DNA of 43,354 nucleotides from Chiloscyllium plagiosum (lineage: Eukaryota), in contig NC_057752.1 of NCBI RefSeq assembly GCF_004010195.1, positions 3,289,223 to 3,332,576 on the forward strand, in the 5' to 3' direction. Shown here piece after piece: positions 5,639 to 33,520 of the stretch; the stretch's first letter is position 1, and the number at the start of each line of letters is the position of its first letter. The translations under genes were made by a program, and so were the position numbers. Under the pieces are notes generated by a model. The model had not been told where the DNA came from, did no database searches, and worked only from the letters and a program-made list of their open reading frames with translations.

Positions 5639-5673
5639 CACCTGATGAAGGAGCAGCGCTCCGAAAGCTAGTG
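5639..5673 (+). ncRNA. Minimal hammerhead ribozyme, core intact
   Basis: CAC-CUGAUGA-A-GGAGC(agc)GCUCC-GAAA-GCUA/GUG. Confidence 0.8.
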
Positions 5674-5727
5674 CTTCCCAATGAACCTGTTGGACTATAA
5701 CCTGGTATTGTGTGATTTTTAACTTTG

Positions 5728-5991
5728 CAAAAGTGAGGACTGCAGATGCTGGAAACCAGAGTGGTGCTGGAAAAGCACAGCAGGTCAGGCAGCATCCGAG
5801 GAGCAGGAAAATCGGTGTTGCGGGCAAAAGCCCTTCATCAGGACTGGTTTAACAAACTGTGCAGTCTATTTGGTGGGTTAACAAACTGGGTAGTCTATGT
5901 GGTGATTCCTGATGAAGGGCTTTTGCCCGAAACGTCAATTTTCCTGCTCCTTGGATGCTGCCTGACCTGCTGTGCTTTTCCAGCACCACTC
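5728..5991. mobile_element. Inverted PLE family A cassette with 15-bp TSD
   Basis: Arms ~5757-5843 and ~5907-5993 are reverse complements; flanked by TGATTTTTAACTTTG at 5713-5727 and 5992-6006. Confidence 0.85.
5905..5940 (+). ncRNA. Hammerhead motif, intact core, weakened stem I
   Basis: CUGAUGA-A-GGGC(uuuu)GCCC-GAAA-CGUC; the opposite-strand copy at ~5810-5843 has GAAA>GCAA. Confidence 0.7.
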
Positions 5992-6452
5992 TGATTTTTA
6001 ACTTTGTCCATTCCAGTCCAACACCGGCATCTCCACATCGTCTCCCCCTCCTGTGCTACACCCCGGGTCAATGTGGCTGGAGAGTCTCACGAAGCGAGAG
6101 CTCAGCGTGCTGCTCGCAAAATGTCAGACGTGTCCACAGATCGAGGTGTGAGCAAATGCAACCAAGCCTAAGCAGAACAGAGAACGGATGGGGGGGGGGG
6201 TGTCAAACATCCTTGGCTGCATGAAGTGCTGCAGTGGTTTGGTCACCCTGCCTGTAACCTAAAGACCCAAGCATGCTCTGACAACAAACGCCAGCATTTT
6301 GAATCCCACCAGGGCAGCTGACAAATCTGGAATTAAAAGCTAATCTTCACGCTGGTGATCAAGGAAACCATGAATAGTCATAAAAACCCATCTTGTTCAC
6401 TCATGGGAACTAAGTCTGCCGTCGTGCCTCGGTCTGGCTCATGCAGTTGACT

Positions 6453-6693
6453 AGGCGAAAGTGAGGACTGCAGATGCTGGAGATCAGAGTCAAGATTCAA
6501 GCAGTGCTGGAAAAGCCCAGCAGGTCAGGCAGCATCCGAGTCGCAGGAAAATCAACATTTCGGGCAGGAGCCCTTCATCAGGGATGAGGCGAAGGAACTA
6601 GTCTCATTCCTGATGAGGGCTCCTGCCCGAAACATCGATTTTCCTGCTCCTTGGATGCTGCCTGACCTGCTGTGCTTTTCCAGCACCACTCTA
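6453..6693. mobile_element. Inverted PLE family A cassette with 12-bp TSD and two hammerhead motifs
   Basis: Arms ~6503-6588 and ~6604-6690 are reverse complements; ATGCAGTTGACT at 6441-6452 and 6694-6705; cores at ~6553-6581 (-) and 6610-6636 (+). Confidence 0.85.
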
Positions 6694-12748: not shown

Positions 12749-13484
12749 GTGGCTCAGTGGTTAGCGCCGCTGCCTCACAGCGCTAGCGACCCATATTCGA
12801 TTCCACCATCGACTGTCTGTGTGGGGTTTGTACGTTCTCCCTGCATCTGCACGGGTTTCCTCCCACAGTCCAAAGATGTGTAGGTTAGGGTGGATTGGCC
12901 ATGCTAAATTGTCCCGTAGTGTCCCAGGGATGTACAGGTTAGGGTGGATTGGCTGTGCTAAATTGTCCCGTAGTGTCCCAGGGATGTGCAGGTTAGGGTG
13001 GATTGGCTGTGCTAAATTGTCCCGTAGTGTCCCAGGGATGTGCAGGTTAGAGTGGATTGGCCATGCTAAATTGTTCTATAGTGCCCAGGTATGTGCAGGT
13101 TAGGGTGGATTGGCCATGCTAAATTGTCCCATAGTGTCCAGAGACGTGCAGGTTAGGGTGGATCAGCCATGCTAAATTGTCCCATAGTCTCCAGGGATGT
13201 GCAGGTTAGGGTGGATCAGCCATGCTAAATTTTCCCATAGTCTCCAGGGATGTGCAGGTTAGGGTGGATTGCCCATGCTAAATTGTCCCATAGTGTTCAG
13301 GGATGTGCAGGTTAGGGTGGATTGGCCATGCTAAATTGCCCCATAGTGTCCAGGGATGTGCAGGTTTGGGTGGATTGGCCGTGCTAAATTGTCCATAATG
13401 TGCAGGCTCGGTGGGTTAGCTGTGGGTCACTCTTTGGAGGATCAGTGTGGACTTGATGGGCTGAACAGCCCATAGGGATTCTAC
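12749..13484 (+). mobile_element. HE1-type V-SINE with expanded internal tandem array
   Basis: Head GTGGCTCAGTGGTTAGCGCCGCTGCCTCACAG; tail CATAGGGATTCTA. Confidence 0.9.
12875..13410 (+). repeat. 53-54 bp minisatellite, ~10 units
   Basis: Unit GATGTGCAGGTTAGGGTGGATTGGCCATGCTAAATTGTCCCATAGTGTCCAGG starting at 12875, 12929, 12983, 13037, 13090, 13143, 13196, 13249, 13302, 13355. Confidence 0.97.
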
Positions 13485-14649: not shown

Positions 14650-15780
14650 TGTGAGAGGAAGGATGTTATTAAACTGGAGAGAGTTGGGTAAAGATTGACC
14701 AAGTGTTGACGGGAATGGAGTGCTTGAGATAGAAAAATAGGGCGGAAAGGCTGGAGTGGAGGAGGTTGAGAGGTGACTTTATTGAGGTTTATAAAATCAA
14801 GGTGGGCGTGGTGAGGGGGTAAAGATGATCGTGGGATGGCACGGTGGCTTAGTGGTGAGCACTGCTGCCTCACAGCGCCAGGGACCTGAGTTTGATTCCA
14901 GCCTCAGGATGACTATCTGTGTGGAGTTTGCACATTCTCCCCGTGTCTGTGTGGGTTTCCTCCGGGTGCTCTGGTTTTCTCCCACAGTCCAAAGATGTGC
15001 AGGTCAGGTGGATTGGCCATGCTAAATTGTCCCATAGTGCCCAGGGATGTGCAGGTTAGGGTGGATTGGCCGTGCTAAATTGCCCCATAGTGTCCAGGGA
15101 TGTGCAGGTTAGGGTGGATTGGCCATGCTAAATTGTCCCATAGTACCCAGGGATGTGCAGGTTAGGGTGGATTGGCCATGCTAAATTGTCCCATAGTACC
15201 CAGGGATGAGAAGGTTAGGATGGATTGGCCATGCTAAATTGCCCCATAGTGCCCATGGATGTGCAGGTTAGGGTGGATTGCCATGCTAAATTGTCCCATA
15301 GTGTCCAGGGATGTGCAGGTTAGGGTGGATTGGCCATGGGAAATATGGGGTTACAGGATAGACGGGGTGAGGCTGGGTCGGATGCTCTTCAGAGGGTCAG
15401 TATGGACTTGTTGGGCTGAACGGCCTGTTTCCACACTGCACGGCTTCTATCGATAAGGTGAACAACAAAGGTCTTTTCCCCAGGTTGAGGGAGCACAAAA
15501 CTGGAGGGTATTTTTGAAGGTGAGAGGAGAAAGATTTAAGAAGGGCATGAGGGACAACGTTTTTACACAGAGGATGGTTCGTGTGTGGAAATAACTTCCA
15601 GGGGAAGTGGTGGATGTGGGTGCAGTTACAACGTTTAAAAGACATTTGGATAAATACAAGAAGAGGAAAGGTTTCGAGGGATATGGGTCAGGAGCAGGCA
15701 GGTGGGACGAGGTTAGTTTGGGGATTGCGGTCTGCATGGACTGGTTGGACCGAAGGGTCTGTTTCCGTGCTGTATGACCA
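14650..15780 (+). mobile_element. CR1 LINE 3' region interrupted by a SINE
   Basis: AGGAAGGATGTTATTAAACTGGAGAG..AGAGGTGACTTTATTGAGGTTTATAAAATC, resuming at ~15451 and running to GGGTCTGTTTCCGTGCTGTATGAC. Confidence 0.88.
14833..15450 (+). mobile_element. HE1-type V-SINE with ~6.5 copies of the 53-bp unit (14994-15338)
   Basis: Head GGATGGCACGGTGGCTTAGTGG; same unit as the 12875 array. Confidence 0.92.
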
Positions 15781-20052: not shown

Positions 20053-20575
20053 CTTGCGGAACGTTACATGGAACATCTCTGGGACAAACGCACCAAACAA
20101 CCCCACCGCCCTGTGGCCGAACACTTCAACTCCCCCTCCCACTCTGCCAAGGACATGCAAGTCCTGTGCCTCCTCCACTGCCAAATCCTCGCCACCCGAT
20201 GCCTGGAAGAAGAACGCCTCATCTTCCACGTCAGGACCCTCCAACCACATGGCATCAAATGTGGATTTCACCAGTTTCCTCATCTCCCCTCCCTCCCAGA
20301 TCCAACCTTCCAACTCGGCACCGTCCTCTTGAATGGTCCTACCTGTCCATCTTCCTTCCTACCTTTCCACTCCAGCCTCCCCTCTGACCTATCAACATCA
20401 CCCAGATCCCATTTCTCTCTCAGCCGCCCCTGGGTGACCCCCGCATTCCTGATGAAGGCCTCATGCCCAAAACATCGATTCTCCTGCCTCTTGGATGCTG
20501 CCTGATCGGCTGTGCTTTTCCAGCACCACACTCTCGACTTTACTCTCCAGCATCTGCAGTCCTCACTTTCTCCTC
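20053..20575 (+). mobile_element. Penelope-like element 3' end: GIY-YIG endonuclease C-terminal remnant plus family A terminal repeat
   Basis: LAERYMEHL..HRPVAEHFNSPSHSAKDMQVLCLLHC..RCLEEERLIFHVRTLQPHGI, frameshift to NVDFTSF; decayed hammerhead 20449-20476; ends CAGCATCTGCAGTCCTCACTTTCTCC. Confidence 0.9.
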
Positions 20576-23387: not shown

Positions 23388-23635
23388 GTTTGGAGGGATA
23401 TGGGCCTTCTGATGAAGGGCTTTTGCCTGAAACATCAATTCTCCTGCTCCTTGAATGCTTTTCCAACACCACACTGTCGACTCTGATCTCCAGCATCTGC
23501 AGTCTGCACTTTCTCCTTGAAGGGATATGGGCCAGGAAGTGACGCGTGGGACTAGTTCAGTTTGGGATTATATTAGGCACGGAATGGTTGGACCAAAGGG
23601 TCTGTTTACGTGCTGTATGTCTCTAGGACTCTATA
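23388..23635 (+). mobile_element. CR1 3' end containing a PLE family A insertion (23407-23520) with 13-bp TSD
   Basis: AGGGATATGGGCC at 23394-23406 and 23521-23533; insert begins TTCTGATGAAGGGCTTTTGCCTGAAACATC. Confidence 0.85.
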
Positions 23636-24238: not shown

Positions 24239-24474
24239 ATTACAATGGGGATGGTGATAATTAACTATTAAAATGGTGATAGTGATAATTAACGATTAAA
24301 GTGGGGAATGGTGATAATTAATGATTAAAATAGTGATAGTGATAATTAATGATTAAAGTGGGAATGGTGATAATTAATGATTACAATGGGGTTGATGAAA
24401 ATTAACGATTAAAATGGGGATGGTGATAATTAATTATTAAAATGGGAATGGTGATAATTAATGATTAAAATGGG
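24239..24474. repeat. 28-bp AT-rich minisatellite, ~8.5 units
   Basis: ATTAAAATGGGGATGGTGATAATTAATG consensus. Confidence 0.92.
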
Positions 24475-25303
24475 CATGTTCAGGAATTGGAATGGGGCAG
24501 GAATTTTGAAGGAAATTGAGAAATTACAGAGAATAGGAAAGCCTCAGATGACTGGTGGGATTTGACGGATATTAAAATCGAGGCCTTGGTGGATTCAGAG
24601 TCCATGCTGGGACATGGAATGTGTTAGGTCCCACCCAGCAGAGTTTGAAAGAAGCTCAGGTTTCCAGAGGGTGGAAGTGGGGGGATAGCACTGGTACGGT
24701 TATGTGCGGAACTAGCAAAGACAACTCCAAACAGAGCCTGCCATTATTCTGCCATACTTCCTGTCTGCTGAGGCCTAATCCCTGGGCTCAAAGTGCAGAA
24801 TCCATCTTATTACTGGAAAACCAATCTCTCGAGATCTTTGGGCAAAATTGCTTCCCGTTCCAAAGCAGTGCACGTGCACCAAAATGCGGACGATTCGATG
24901 GAAGTGGAGAAAGCCATGTCACTCTGGAGACAGTGGCCTTCCCTGAGGCTCTGGTTTCAAACTCCATGCCAGGACACACTTCTGGCCACAATAAGGAACG
25001 TTCGTGAAATGGTTCAGTCGGTTGATAGGGGAGCTGCCACTTCCCCAAAGGAGGATAAATGTGTGTGTGCCAAGATACCAAACAAACTGCACAGGGGCGG
25101 AACCAAGCGATGGATTCTTCAAGGTAACAACTCTGTGACTGCGCTAAAGCTTTCTGCTGCATTTCAAGGCAGTCCTTGCTTCCCCACTATCGAATGTGCT
25201 CAACGTGCTGCACTATTTTGAAAGGTAGTCTGGAATTAGCTGATGAATATCCATGAGTTCTGTCCCCCTCGGTTCCTTTCCTCACAGGCTAAGGCATTAT
25301 GGA

Positions 25304-26009: not shown

Positions 26010-26736
26010 GAATAGAACAGAATCCATACCGAGTGGAAATAGGCTATTCGGCCCAACACGTCCACACCAACTCTTCGGAGAACATCCTACCCAGACACAC
26101 CTGCCCTCCGAACCTCATTCCTGCATTTCCCATGGCCAATCCACCATAACCTGCACATCCCTGAACACGATGGGACAAGTTAGCACGGCCAATCCACCCT
26201 AACCTGCACATCCCTGGACACTATGGGACAATTTAGCATGGCCAATCCACCATAACCTCCACATCCTTGGACACTATGGGACAATTTAGCATGGGCAATC
26301 CACCTTAACCTGCACATCCCTGAACACGATGGGACAAGTTAGCATGGCCAATCCACCCTAACCTGCATATCCCTGGACACTATGGGATAACTTAGCATGG
26401 CCGATCCACCCTAACCTGCACATCCCTGGACACTATGGGGCAATTTAGCATGGCCAATCCACCCTAACCTGCACATCCCTGGACACTGTGGGGCAACGTA
26501 GCACAGCAATCCACCCTAACCTGCACATCCCTGGACACTGTGGGCACTTTAGCATGGCCAATCCACACTAACCTGCACATGTTTGGACACTGGGATGAAA
26601 CCAGAGCACCCGGAGGAAACCCACAAAGACACGGCGAGAATGTGCAAACTCCACACAGAGAGTTGCTCGAGGGTGGTATCGAACCCGGGTCCCTGGCACT
26701 GTGAGGCAGTAGCGCTAACCACTGAGCCACGAGGGC
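26010..26736 (-). mobile_element. HE1-type V-SINE with ~9 copies of the 53-bp unit (26127-26582)
   Basis: Repeated CCAATCCACCCTAACCTGCACATCCCTGGACACTATGGGACAATTTAGCATGG. Confidence 0.93.
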
Positions 26737-28754: not shown

Positions 28755-29312
28755 CAAGTGGCCAACTCAAGTAGGCCAATCCAATGGCCAACTCAAGTAG
28801 GCCAATCCAAGTGGGCCAATCCAAGGGAAACAACCCGAGTAGGCCAATCCAAGTGGGCCAATCCAAGGGGAACAACCCAAGTGGGCCTATCCAAGTGGGC
28901 CAATCCAAGTGGACCAATCCAAGTGGACCCCAATCCAAGTTGGGTCAATCCAAGTAGGCCAATCCAAGTGGGCCACTCCAAGTGGGCCAATCCAAGTGGA
29001 CTAACCTAAGTGGGCCAATCCAAGTGGGCCAATCCAAGTGGACCAATCCAAGTGGGCCAACCCAAGTGGGCCCATCCAAGTGCACCAAACCAAGTGGAAC
29101 AACCCAAGTGGGCCAACCCAAGTGGGGGCCAACCCAATTGGGCCATTCCAATTGGGCCAATCCAAGTGGAACAACCCAAGTGGGCCAATCCAAGTGAGCC
29201 AATCCAAGTGGGCCAACCCAAGTGGGCCAACCCAAGTGGGCCAATCCACGTGGACCAACCCAAGTGGGCCAATCCAAGTGAGCCAATCCAAGTGGGCAAA
29301 CCTAAGTGGGCC
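28755..29312. repeat. 14-bp minisatellite CCAATCCAAGTGGG, ~40 units
   Basis: Direct reading; produces the GQSKWANPSGPIQV repetitive ORFs. Confidence 0.97.
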
Positions 29313-31219: not shown

Positions 31220-31845
31220 ACAGGCGAGTATGTTTGAAGGAGCAGAAATAGCAAAGGGAATAGCCCTTTTGGCAAGACCATTACCTGCAAATGGACCCAT
31301 GTTCAGGCATCCTTTTCTGCATCGCAGTTTGAAAGCACAAATTATATGGAAGAGATCCATTCAGTGCTCGGAGCAAGTTGGATATCAACGGGTATCTTTG
31401 TGAACTCTTGATTCTGAGTGCATGAAAATTCATATTGAACAGAATTTCTGCTTTCTCAAGCACGGAGCTGATAATCTCAACATCAACGGCTTAACTGAAC
31501 TCCTTTCCCATGAGCGTTGTCTGTGCAGTTTCTCTCTTTTCCATGCTACTTTTCTGCTTCATATCTTGCCTTCCTATTATCTTACATTCCAGCGTTTAAT
31601 CACGCTGTGGCAACTCCCACTCTTTCAGGTCCAGATCACTGACAACGAGCAATAAGCCAAGGGAAACACAAGTCAAAGAGAGAACCAATCCCTGAACAAT
31701 GTCAAGAAACAATGCTTTCAAATCTGGGTAATCATCTGAAAATATCCAAAAAAAACTCCCTTTAGACCCCACATGAAAGACAGCTAATCCTTTAATAGCC
31801 TTGTTAAACTGTCAATCAAACTGAGCTTGGAACCACCCTCCCGTT

Positions 31846-31887
31846 GAGAATCCTGATGAAGAGCTTTTGCTCGAAACGTCGATTCTC
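31846..31887 (+). ncRNA. Minimal type I hammerhead ribozyme, best-preserved copy
   Basis: GAGAAUC-CUGAUGA-A-GAGC(uuuu)GCUC-GAAA-CGUC/GAUUCUC; 7-bp stem I, GUC cleavage triplet, palindromic ACGU stem III. Confidence 0.88.
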
Positions 31888-31976
31888 CTGCTCCTCCAAA
31901 GCTGCCTGACCTGCTGTGCTTTCCCAGCACCACACTCTCGGCCCTGATCTCCACCATCTGCAGTCCTCAGTTTCTC
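31846..31976 (+). mobile_element. PLE family A terminal repeat
   Basis: Hammerhead followed by GCTGCCTGACCTGCTGTGCTTT..CATCTGCAGTCCTCAGTTTCTC. Confidence 0.85.
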
Positions 31977-32179
31977 ATAACTGTAGTGTTTAAACTCAGA
32001 TGAATATGCATAAGAACTCAATGGACACTGTACGGACAGGCATTTTTTTTTTCCCTAGCCTGACAACCATAGCAGTCAGCAGAGTTTTATTTAAGACCCA
32101 TTGACAGCTGTAGCCTGTTATTAAGTTAAAAAATTTCAGATTATGACAGTTCGACAATCGTTATTCACCATTTTCCTTT

Positions 32180-32670
32180 GACAGCATCTTCCAAACCCTC
32201 AACTTCTTCCATCTGGAAAGACAAGGGCAGCAGATACATGGGAACACCATCCCCTGCAAATTCCCCTCCAAGCCACACACCCTTCCTGACCTGGAAATGG
32301 ATCACTTTTCCTACACGGTCGCTGGGTCAAAATCCTGGAACTCCCTCCCGAAGGGCATTGTGGGGGTTCTGACACCCCAAACACTGAAGCAGTTTTGGTA
32401 CGTGTATGGAATGAGCTGCCAGATGGAGTGGTGGAGGCTGGTACAATTATAATTAAAAAGCATCTGGATAGGTATATGAAGAGGAAGGGTTTAGAGGGAT
32501 ATGGGCTAAATGCTGGCTAAATGCTGGCAATCTAGTTCAGATTGGGATGTTGGGTCAGTGCAGATAAATCGGACCGAAGAGTCTATTTCCGTGCTGCACG
32601 GCTCTCAATGACGGTTAGGGATGGACAATTTGTGCTGGCCTAGCCAGCGTCATTCCATCCTGTGAAGGAA
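32180..32670 (+). mobile_element. 21185-family LINE 3' end with inserted CR1 3' fragment (32396-32605)
   Basis: GACAAGGGCAGCAGATACATGGGAACACCA; GTACGTGTATGGAATGAGCTGCCAGA. Confidence 0.85.
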
Positions 32671-32881: not shown

Positions 32882-33134
32882 TTCTATCAACAAACACATT
32901 GACTTGGACCCAATTTACCACGCCCTGAGAAAAACAGTAGGAATTGACATCGACATCAGAAATGACGTCACCACAGGAAATTACATCATGGACCGAAAGA
33001 AACCCAAACATATAAATAGAAAGCAGGAATCATCAGCAGTGCTTCACCTGAGGCTCACTGAAGATGTTACCGAGTAGGGTGACAAAACGTCTGAAAATGA
33101 ACCTTCCAGCTCAGTGAGCAAACCTACATCCAGA
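32882..33134 (+). mobile_element. Third PLE family 3' end with hammerhead and ~12-bp TSD
   Basis: Frame (N)SINKHIDLDPIYHALRK resembles a PLE ORF end; UCA-CUGAAGA-U-GUUACC(gaguag)GGUGAC-AAAA-CGUC/UGA at 33055-33094; GCCATCTTTAAA 32870-32881 vs GCCATTTTTAAA 33135-33146. Confidence 0.75.
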
Positions 33135-33377
33135 GCCATTTTTAAAGTTCGAACGATTCCTCCTGACTCGGTGAAAATCCCGCCCATTGTCTCAGGTTAA
33201 TTTTAGCTCTTAATAAGGACTGGTCGGCAAGACAGGCTAATTATAATTGGACACAAGCTGACAATCGCGCACACAAAATGAAGCATCATTCCTTCTACGC
33301 ATGCAAATAAGACTCTTTTATTTTCAAACCACACCTAAGGGTTTATGCCTCAGCTTAAACGTGCTTATTAAGGCCTT

Positions 33378-33520
33378 GATCAAGATCGAGAGTGTGGTGC
33401 TGGAAAAGCACAGCAGGTCAGGCAGCATCCGAGGAGCAGGAGAATCGACATTTTGGGCATAAGCCCTTCATCAGGAATGAGGCTTGTGGGTCGGGGCTGA
33501 GAGATAAATGGGAGGGGGTT
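33378..33520 (-). mobile_element. PLE family A terminal repeat, decayed hammerhead (33440-33478)
   Basis: Minus strand CTGATGAAGGGCTTATGCCCAAAATGTCGATTCTCC. Confidence 0.8.

Follow-up and report, generated by a model that had tools for sequence, protein, structure and literature searches.

The window, that is, the whole 43,354-nucleotide stretch of DNA analysed, contains at 31846–31887 on the + strand a compact motif in which CUGANGA, GAAA and NUH elements occur in type I order together with stems I and II. The initial annotation had described it as an intact minimal hammerhead ribozyme with all core nucleotides, a 4-bp stem II (GAGC:GCUC), a 7-bp stem I (GAGAAUC:GAUUCUC) and a helix III consisting of the ACGU palindrome alone. 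These elements are borne out, as every listed base is present, both stems are as claimed, and the palindrome has no loop. The motif spans the left end of a repeat insertion, and its parts are as follows, read directly from the sequence unless another basis is given in brackets.

31846–31852, +: stem I 5′ arm GAGAATC, in which family sequence is limited to the final UC
31846–31850, +: GAGAA, non-family junction or flank bases forming stem I pairs 3–7 (copy comparison and family reads)
31853–31859, +: core C3–A9, CTGATGA
31860, +: extra A between positions 9 and 10.1
31861–31864 and 31869–31872, +: stem II, GAGC and GCTC around the loop TTTT, with G10.1–C11.1 as G31861–C31872
31873–31875, +: G12 A13 A14
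31876–31879, +: loopless palindrome A15.1 C15.2 G16.2 U16.1 (ACGU)
31880, +: C17, with the predicted scissile bond at 31880/31881
31881–31887, +: stem I 3′ arm GATTCTC, family sequence GATT[C/T]TC (copy alignment)
31851–31976, +: the whole insertion, a putative 5′-truncated PLE pseudo-LTR stub of family A, about 126 nt, whose 3′ end may reach about 31979

By every sequence feature tested, 31846–31887 is a PLE minimal hammerhead, a known kind of motif. There is no loop 3, positions 15.1–16.1 are palindromic, and the extra nucleotide at 9/10.1 is accompanied by the G10.1–C11.1 pair. The metazoan PLE pseudo-LTR hammerheads described in PMC4209133 share the type I order, the full core, the loopless palindromic 15.2–16.2, the extra base at 9/10.1 and the G10.1–C11.1 pair, and they too are mostly solitary truncated copies. 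The extra A after A9 (A31860), which had been regarded as tolerated, is in that account a usual feature of the class, and the proposed association with PLEs agrees with the type I order, the loopless palindromic stem III and the ties of the family to PLEs set out below. The predicted cut on the + strand likewise falls where it had been placed, after C17 at 31880. The motif departs from the same account in stem I, which is 4–5 bp in Schistosoma and 7 bp at 31846, and in stem II, which is 7–8 bp there and 4 bp here. Among the examples drawn on from PMC4209133 there is none from a shark, although the supplements may list fish or shark motifs, and a literature search for Penelope hammerheads in shark genomes, with subscription papers and bioRxiv supplements mostly outside its range, found none.

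The motif at 31846 is far beyond chance. The fold of 31830–31900 has z = −3.77, with 0 of 200 shuffles equally good, and a strict descriptor for loopless hammerheads, requiring the full core and a stem II of at least 4 bp, finds 7 sites in the window versus 19 in 1000 shuffled windows whose dinucleotide counts were kept approximately. Stem I reaches at least 3 bp in 3 of these 7 sites and at least 7 bp in one, against 0 in the 1000 shuffled windows. A hammerhead model search, which had been proposed as a check, did not recover the motif: across the whole window 0 Rfam matches reach the gathering score, and over 31500–32200 the sole match is unrelated (E = 4.3). The degenerate motif pattern was found in 0 viral contigs and 0 metagenome contigs. 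Another 29 metagenome loci with a 19-nt family pattern were taken as chance matches, as none of them extends beyond 30 matching bases or takes in the hammerhead core.

The 31846 copy is one of several intact sites and has the longest stem I among the 10 motif sites listed for the window. Full cores are also held at 5642+ and 4731−, which together with 31138+ belong to a second family of hammerhead stubs, CTGAYGA-AGGAGCAGCGCTCC-GAAA-GCT, with an AGCU palindrome; a third family is seen at 33058+.

4731, −: second-family copy, full core, 4 Watson-Crick stem I pairs
5642, +: second-family copy, full core, 3 Watson-Crick stem I pairs
31138, +: second-family copy, G12>A, AGCU palindrome
33058, +: third hammerhead family, CTGAAGA core, 6-bp stem II, ACGU palindrome, 3-bp stem I, G12>A

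Family A and Penelope-like elements

The insertion at 31851–31976 belongs to a multi-copy family, referred to as family A, of which eight copies lie in the 43-kb window, with cores at 5841−, 5909+, 6581−, 6610+, 20449+, 23409+, 31853+ and 33474−. The stems covary among the eight (GGGC:GCCC vs GAGC:GCUC), and two of the six insertions are head-to-head pairs. The other family-A insertions, and the coding remnant that precedes one of them, are listed here.

5730–5992, both strands: head-to-head pair, cores 5841− and 5909+, 15-bp TSD at 5713/5992
6455–6693, both strands: head-to-head pair, cores 6581− and 6610+, 12-bp TSD at 6441/6694
20053–20268, +: putative PLE GIY-YIG endonuclease remnant covering the C-terminal half, some 180 bases before the family copy at 20449
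20446–20575, +: copy behind the endonuclease remnant, core 20449 decayed (G12>A, G16.2>A)
23407–23520, +: closest same-strand copy, 8.4 kb upstream of the 31846 copy, palindrome broken, 13-bp TSD at 23394/23521
33377–33520, −: closest copy, 1.5 kb downstream of the 31846 copy, G12>A, C15.2>U

The copy at 5909+ keeps the core and ACGU and has lost the first stem I pair. In the 5730–5992 pair the spacer is a 29-bp tandem duplication (5845–5904). At 33474− and 6581− the family 5′ arm is kept, and in the predicted fold its UCAU(U/C) pairs with the core GAUGA; this hairpin, at the edge where 5′ truncation usually falls (31851), could if formed silence the ribozyme or favour cDNA fold-back.

Read depth over the motif is 0.9–2.6 × 10^5 times that of the unique flank in 3/3 DNA runs, a rough measure that is not a copy number, and it suggests about 10^5 family copies genome-wide. 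PMC4209133 describes thousands of PLE minimal hammerheads per genome in fish, coelacanth and frog, and the abundance of family A looks 10-fold or more above those counts by this rough depth estimate.

We assign family A, on sequence grounds, to the pseudo-LTRs of an endonuclease-bearing PLE, because a GIY-YIG remnant precedes copy 20449 and because relatives of that remnant carry GIY-YIG and RT in PLE order. The head-to-head pairs and the 12–15-bp TSDs of three other inserts speak for the same link to PLEs. The frame at 20053–20268 has 269 relatives at E ≤ 0.001, the named ones coming from two skates, the whale shark and a sea urchin. A GIY-YIG match is present in 8/11 scanned relatives, mostly near or below the curated cut-off, with RVT_1 alongside it in 3 of the 8; in one relative of 503 aa, RT is followed by a cysteine linker and then by GIY-YIG, which is the PLE order. 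Direct Pfam, PDB and word-based searches did not detect the remnant itself, the atlas lead on it is weak (GIY-YIG makes up 15% of one cluster), and no RT remnant of family A was identified within the window. The position expected of a PLE terminal repeat, downstream of an RT and GIY-YIG ORF, is found for the family and not for the 31846 copy.

The endonuclease relatives carry a CxxxxCxxC linker of the kind described for Neptune and Nematis PLEs (PMC8557442), and the family A element is probably Neptune-type. This linker sets family A apart from the Poseidon PLE of Anolis carolinensis, which otherwise provides a vertebrate parallel as a PLE pseudo-LTR hammerhead (Frangieh et al. 2024, PMC11167929); Poseidon is moreover an intact element with an ORF starting at the motif, and the 31846 copy is a 126-nt stub only. 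Three annotated proteins, P0029 (skate neuromedin-U receptor 1), P0088 (NYAP-family) and P0002 (skate DUF4518), contain a stretch resembling the PLE endonuclease C-terminus, probably through gene-model capture of repeat sequence.

Stem I, the core and the age of the insertion

The 7-bp stem I is peculiar to the 31846 copy. The family 5′ arm, CUCAUUC, gives C–G, U–A and then a U·U mismatch, that is, 2 pairs, and the seven other copies have 2, 0, 2, 2, 1, 2 and 2 contiguous Watson-Crick pairs versus 7 at 31846. GAGAA occurs in 0/7 of them, CTCAT, CGCAT, GTGAT and the like standing in its place, and family reads depart from the reference before 31851, with the consensus end CCTCAT. Because the other copies have 0–2 pairs and family reads leave before 31851, GAGAA is junction or flank sequence, and five of the seven stem I pairs thus come from the insertion junction or flank and not from the element.

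Assembly of the DNA reads points the same way. Locus-specific contigs are unbranched through 31846–31850 and all end at 31880 in 3/3 DNA runs, and from this 31-mer assembly we infer that the string of stem I plus core is single-copy and that 31851–31880 is repeated elsewhere. The contig ends at 31880 are rejected as a sign of cleavage: the runs that show them include DNA runs, and a 31-mer starting at 31851 turns repetitive at 31880.

How readily could a junction supply such a stem? By base composition GAGAA has a frequency of 0.0015 per position, so that among 10^5 copies about 150 stems of 7 bp are expected, and about 12 with all three motif CpGs intact as well. If only this window is counted, such a stem I has a probability of 0.012 (about 1%), falling to about 0.001 when an intact core is required as well. 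Chance at the junction is therefore locally disfavoured as the source of stem I and draws its plausibility from the many copies scanned. Among some 10^5 copies truncated at the ribozyme edge, perfect-looking stems by junction accident are to be expected, and because such accidents occur, stem quality in one copy is no sign of activity.

A different origin for the same bases, which we consider unlikely though worth keeping in view, is that GAGAA(TC) is the last trace of the inverted arm of a once head-to-head insertion. An inverted copy truncated just past the cut site would by itself give a perfect stem I, and most of the arm, together with the left TSD, would later have been deleted. The stub at 31851–31976 indeed has no adjacent TSD, a search giving only distant 6–7-bp matches, while three other family inserts have TSDs of 12–15 bp; two of the six family-A insertions in the window are head-to-head; and one contig from run X3 joins 31851 to 31884 on opposite strands, which is the geometry required. 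Inverted pseudo-LTRs with junction palindromes are described as typical of PLEs in PMC3846280 and PMC8557442. However, only five bases of the arm remain, indistinguishable from flank, two further events are required, and PMC3846280 also describes 5′ junctions that lack a TSD and arise by microhomology. TGAGAA moreover mirrors the 3′ end of the element, TTCTCA, which provides a third possible source. This origin is compatible with inactivity of the motif.

Stem II, GAGC:GCUC, differs from the family majority GGGC:GCCC by a compensatory pair of changes, and because the 31-mer contigs end at 31880, as if 31851–31880 were repeated elsewhere, it is likely a sub-variant common to other family copies. 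All three motif CpGs are kept at 31846 while the other seven copies keep 9/21, and from the CpG decay rates the probability that at least one of eight copies keeps all three is 0.48; the core at 31846 is likely to have stayed intact by chance.

Joint inheritance of the 7-bp stem I and the GAGC:GCUC stem II, from a separate PLE or retrozyme subfamily of greater activity, is highly improbable. The break at 31880 does imply other exact copies of 31851–31880, so that the compensatory stem II looks shared, and 14–49% of the depth at 31862/31871 carries a non-family letter, a proportion inflated by the 88% likeness filter. Against this, contigs do not branch at 31845–31850 in any of the three DNA runs, the loose end that prevails before 31851 is that of the family, CCTCAT, the 31846 copy is old and diverged, and no tandem repeat is present at 31846, so that it is not a retrozyme array. 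The animal non-LTR retrozymes described in bioRxiv 10.64898/2026.07.22.740005, and reported there in the one cartilaginous fish sampled, resemble the motif in having a type I hammerhead of PLE origin, but in them the hammerhead recurs from one unit of a tandem repeat to the next, whereas the 31846 copy is solitary.

The insertion is old and predates the split of two related species that are about 4% diverged. The stub 31851–31976 departs from the family majority letter at 11 of the 126 listed positions. In run X3, from a second individual of organism A, record 10 is identical over 31594–31880, and hence over 31846–31880 of the motif, with two differences at 31544 and 31593; record 16 is identical over 31924–32170, and 31881–31923 lies outside the locus-specific contigs listed. 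Runs X9 and X13 come from organism B, a second species, which has the insertion at the same place: both contigs align up to 31880, X13 record 1 (31230–31880) with 25 other letters (3.8%) and X9 record 18 (31505–31880) with 19, and the downstream contigs show 11 other letters (4.9% in X13). Of the 25 differences in X13, 20 are listed, all upstream of 31757, and five are unplaced. Repeat-family depth masks single-copy changes within the motif, and the organism B motif letters were therefore not read off. Full identity over 30 bases at 3.8% divergence would have P = 0.31 under drift, and the locus provides neither decay of the motif since the split nor demonstrable constraint. In X3 the locus contig at 31525–31880 has a depth of 10.7 vs about 21 in its neighbours, with a second haplotype unplaced there that may be structurally different or filtered out.

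Predicted folding and cleavage

In the parent element the motif would be expected, from its geometry and from PMC4209133, to act as a double hammerhead, with two copies in one tandem transcript. The ACGU palindromes of the two copies would pair to form a 4-bp helix III and the stem I arms would be exchanged, so that each core would cut the other copy after GUC; cleavage would probably be slow, perhaps with help from the element's protein. Because both the palindrome and the stem I arms are exchanged, a heterodimer partner must match both. In the experiments drawn on from PMC4209133 (Cervera & De la Pena 2014), a single minimal hammerhead gave no cleavage and dimers and trimers gave low cleavage, and PLE hammerhead variants with a short palindromic stem III, which the 31846 motif resembles, cleave as dimers (Lunse, Weinberg & Breaker 2016, as summarized in PMC6765202). 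The anole PLE hammerhead cleaved only with the element's protein, and in that account no RNA-seq read started or stopped at the cut position (PMC11167929).

The 31846 copy by itself is predicted to fold otherwise. Only C15.2 and G16.2 stand between A15.1 and U16.1, so that helix III is unable to close within one molecule, and it formed in no computed fold. The predicted monomer is instead a rod of −15.9 kcal/mol, by nearest-neighbour energies that omit core tertiary contacts and Mg2+ and understate the active form here and below, in which G5–G8 (GAUG) pairs with C15.2–C17 (CGUC), stacked on the 7-bp stem I, at a probability of 0.95–0.97. This pairing of core and cut site holds for the motif alone and in 4/4 wider contexts of up to 642 nt, and the open monomer has a probability of 0.02. 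The active homodimer scores −26.3 kcal/mol, whereas a pair of rods scores −31.8 and an inactive duplex −33.6. The rods are thus predicted to be favoured over the active form by 5.5 kcal/mol, and active-like heterodimers with six of the seven other copies (copy 6610 left out) lie +8.7 to +18.9 kcal/mol above the monomers.

Two sites were considered as cis partners and rejected, 31138+, which lies 715 bases upstream and has an AGCU palindrome and G12>A, and 33058+, which has ACGU but also G12>A and stem I arms that do not match. The U–A contact between stem I and loop II that speeds minimal hammerheads (PMC9217987), formed by an unpaired U seven nucleotides after the cut and a loop II A, has no counterpart here, as position 1.7 is the paired C31887 and the loop is UUUU.

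The lone 31846 copy is predicted not to self-cleave, because it has no helix III as a monomer, is expected to fold into a rod that buries the core, and has neither a compatible cis partner nor a sign of the loop II contact. Of the proposal that this is the best candidate for an active self-cleaving RNA, what stands is that no other copy in the window has as good a stem I; activity itself is not supported, given the predicted rod, the disfavoured dimer and the solitary state of the copy. We therefore regard it as very probable that 31846–31887 belongs to a fossil PLE stub in which the core likely survived by chance and the 7-bp stem I was likely born at the junction, with a lone copy predicted not to cleave. 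Neutrality of the locus, a junction origin of stem I, whether by chance or as the remnant of an inverted arm, and inactivity of the copy are what we infer.

The motif is one more copy of a described kind and of little importance by itself. It could nonetheless serve as a natural reagent for studying dimer cleavage by a loopless hammerhead that combines a 4-bp palindrome with a strong stem I. If the motif were engineered into a tandem dimer, slow cleavage at high Mg2+ may well be seen, which would be no proof of activity at the locus.

Transcripts, host context and neighbouring features

RNA run X21 is one poly(A) single-cell library from organism A, of which 12.96 million reads, about 2% of the run, were used. 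The 997 placed reads all fall within 5 of 30 bins, over the repeat, with a depth of 0 in the other 25; 99% of them continue into unlike sequence, and 0/997 match the 31846 copy at a likeness of at least 99%. Mapping of RNA ends at 31880/31881, which had been suggested as a check, shows no pile-up in this one shallow library, and in this respect the motif is like the Poseidon hammerhead, whose presumed cleavage position was also free of RNA-seq ends (PMC11167929). Family A is thus present in RNA, and the 31846 locus is unseen in X21, a single shallow library unable to show silence. At E ≤ 0.001 Pfam found no family in 147 of the 329 unmasked frames of at least 45 aa (all from 19.6 kb onward) and none in 23 long frames, and there is no host exon among the frames scanned.

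The arm made by the junction invites two further readings, of which the first would cast it as an enzyme strand. Trans cleavage would be possible if the locus were transcribed, because the 5′ arm pairs over 7 bp with the post-cut sequence of every family copy, where the family arm pairs over 2. The second supposes that the junction gave a full stem I and that a host transcript then retained the motif as a dimer-dependent or protein-assisted self-cleaving element, which would be the beginning of the route by which the conserved amniote intronic hammerheads are proposed to have arisen. In amniote intronic hammerheads a true helix III is present along with tertiary contacts, and the 31846 copy has neither.

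We hold both a trans-cleaving strand directed at family RNAs and an early domesticated hammerhead fixed in two shark species to be exceedingly improbable. Recruitment into a host transcript, as little to be expected, would fit the intact core, the perfect stems, the three retained motif CpGs and the presence of the insertion in two species, and the domestication of a retroelement hammerhead has been proposed for RECK-type introns (PMC6155905), but the motif has no helix III, unlike canonical amniote motifs, an unchanged stretch of 30 bases at 3.8% divergence has P = 0.31, so that the two species are uninformative, the stub is off the majority letter at 11 of the 126 listed positions, and X21 has no reads from the unique flanks and the scanned frames no host exon. 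The RECK and DTNB intronic hammerheads described in that paper are, like the 31846 copy, of type I, thought to be retroelement-derived and fixed at one locus; they are conserved across classes. The 31846 copy has no Rfam match. If cleavage or cross-species conservation were true, the locus would represent a retroelement ribozyme caught during recruitment.

Several other features lie in the flanks and elsewhere in the window. On either side of the insertion (31785–31818 and 32102–32184) lie TAATCC, CTGTCAATCA and, in a span of 85 bases, three TGACAG, where 0.35 are expected per 450 bases, and CTGTCAATCA is what we take to be the reverse of a Pbx-Meis-type site. The segment 31742–31837 has extra contig depth, part of it being a lower-copy repeat. 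Arrays with a 53-bp unit in 6.5–10 copies occupy 12868–13406, 14994–15338 and 26131–26591, within elements that are presumably tRNA-like SINE copies. A 14/42-bp minisatellite of about 40 units spans 28755–29312, and a 28-bp AT-rich array is found at 24239–24478.
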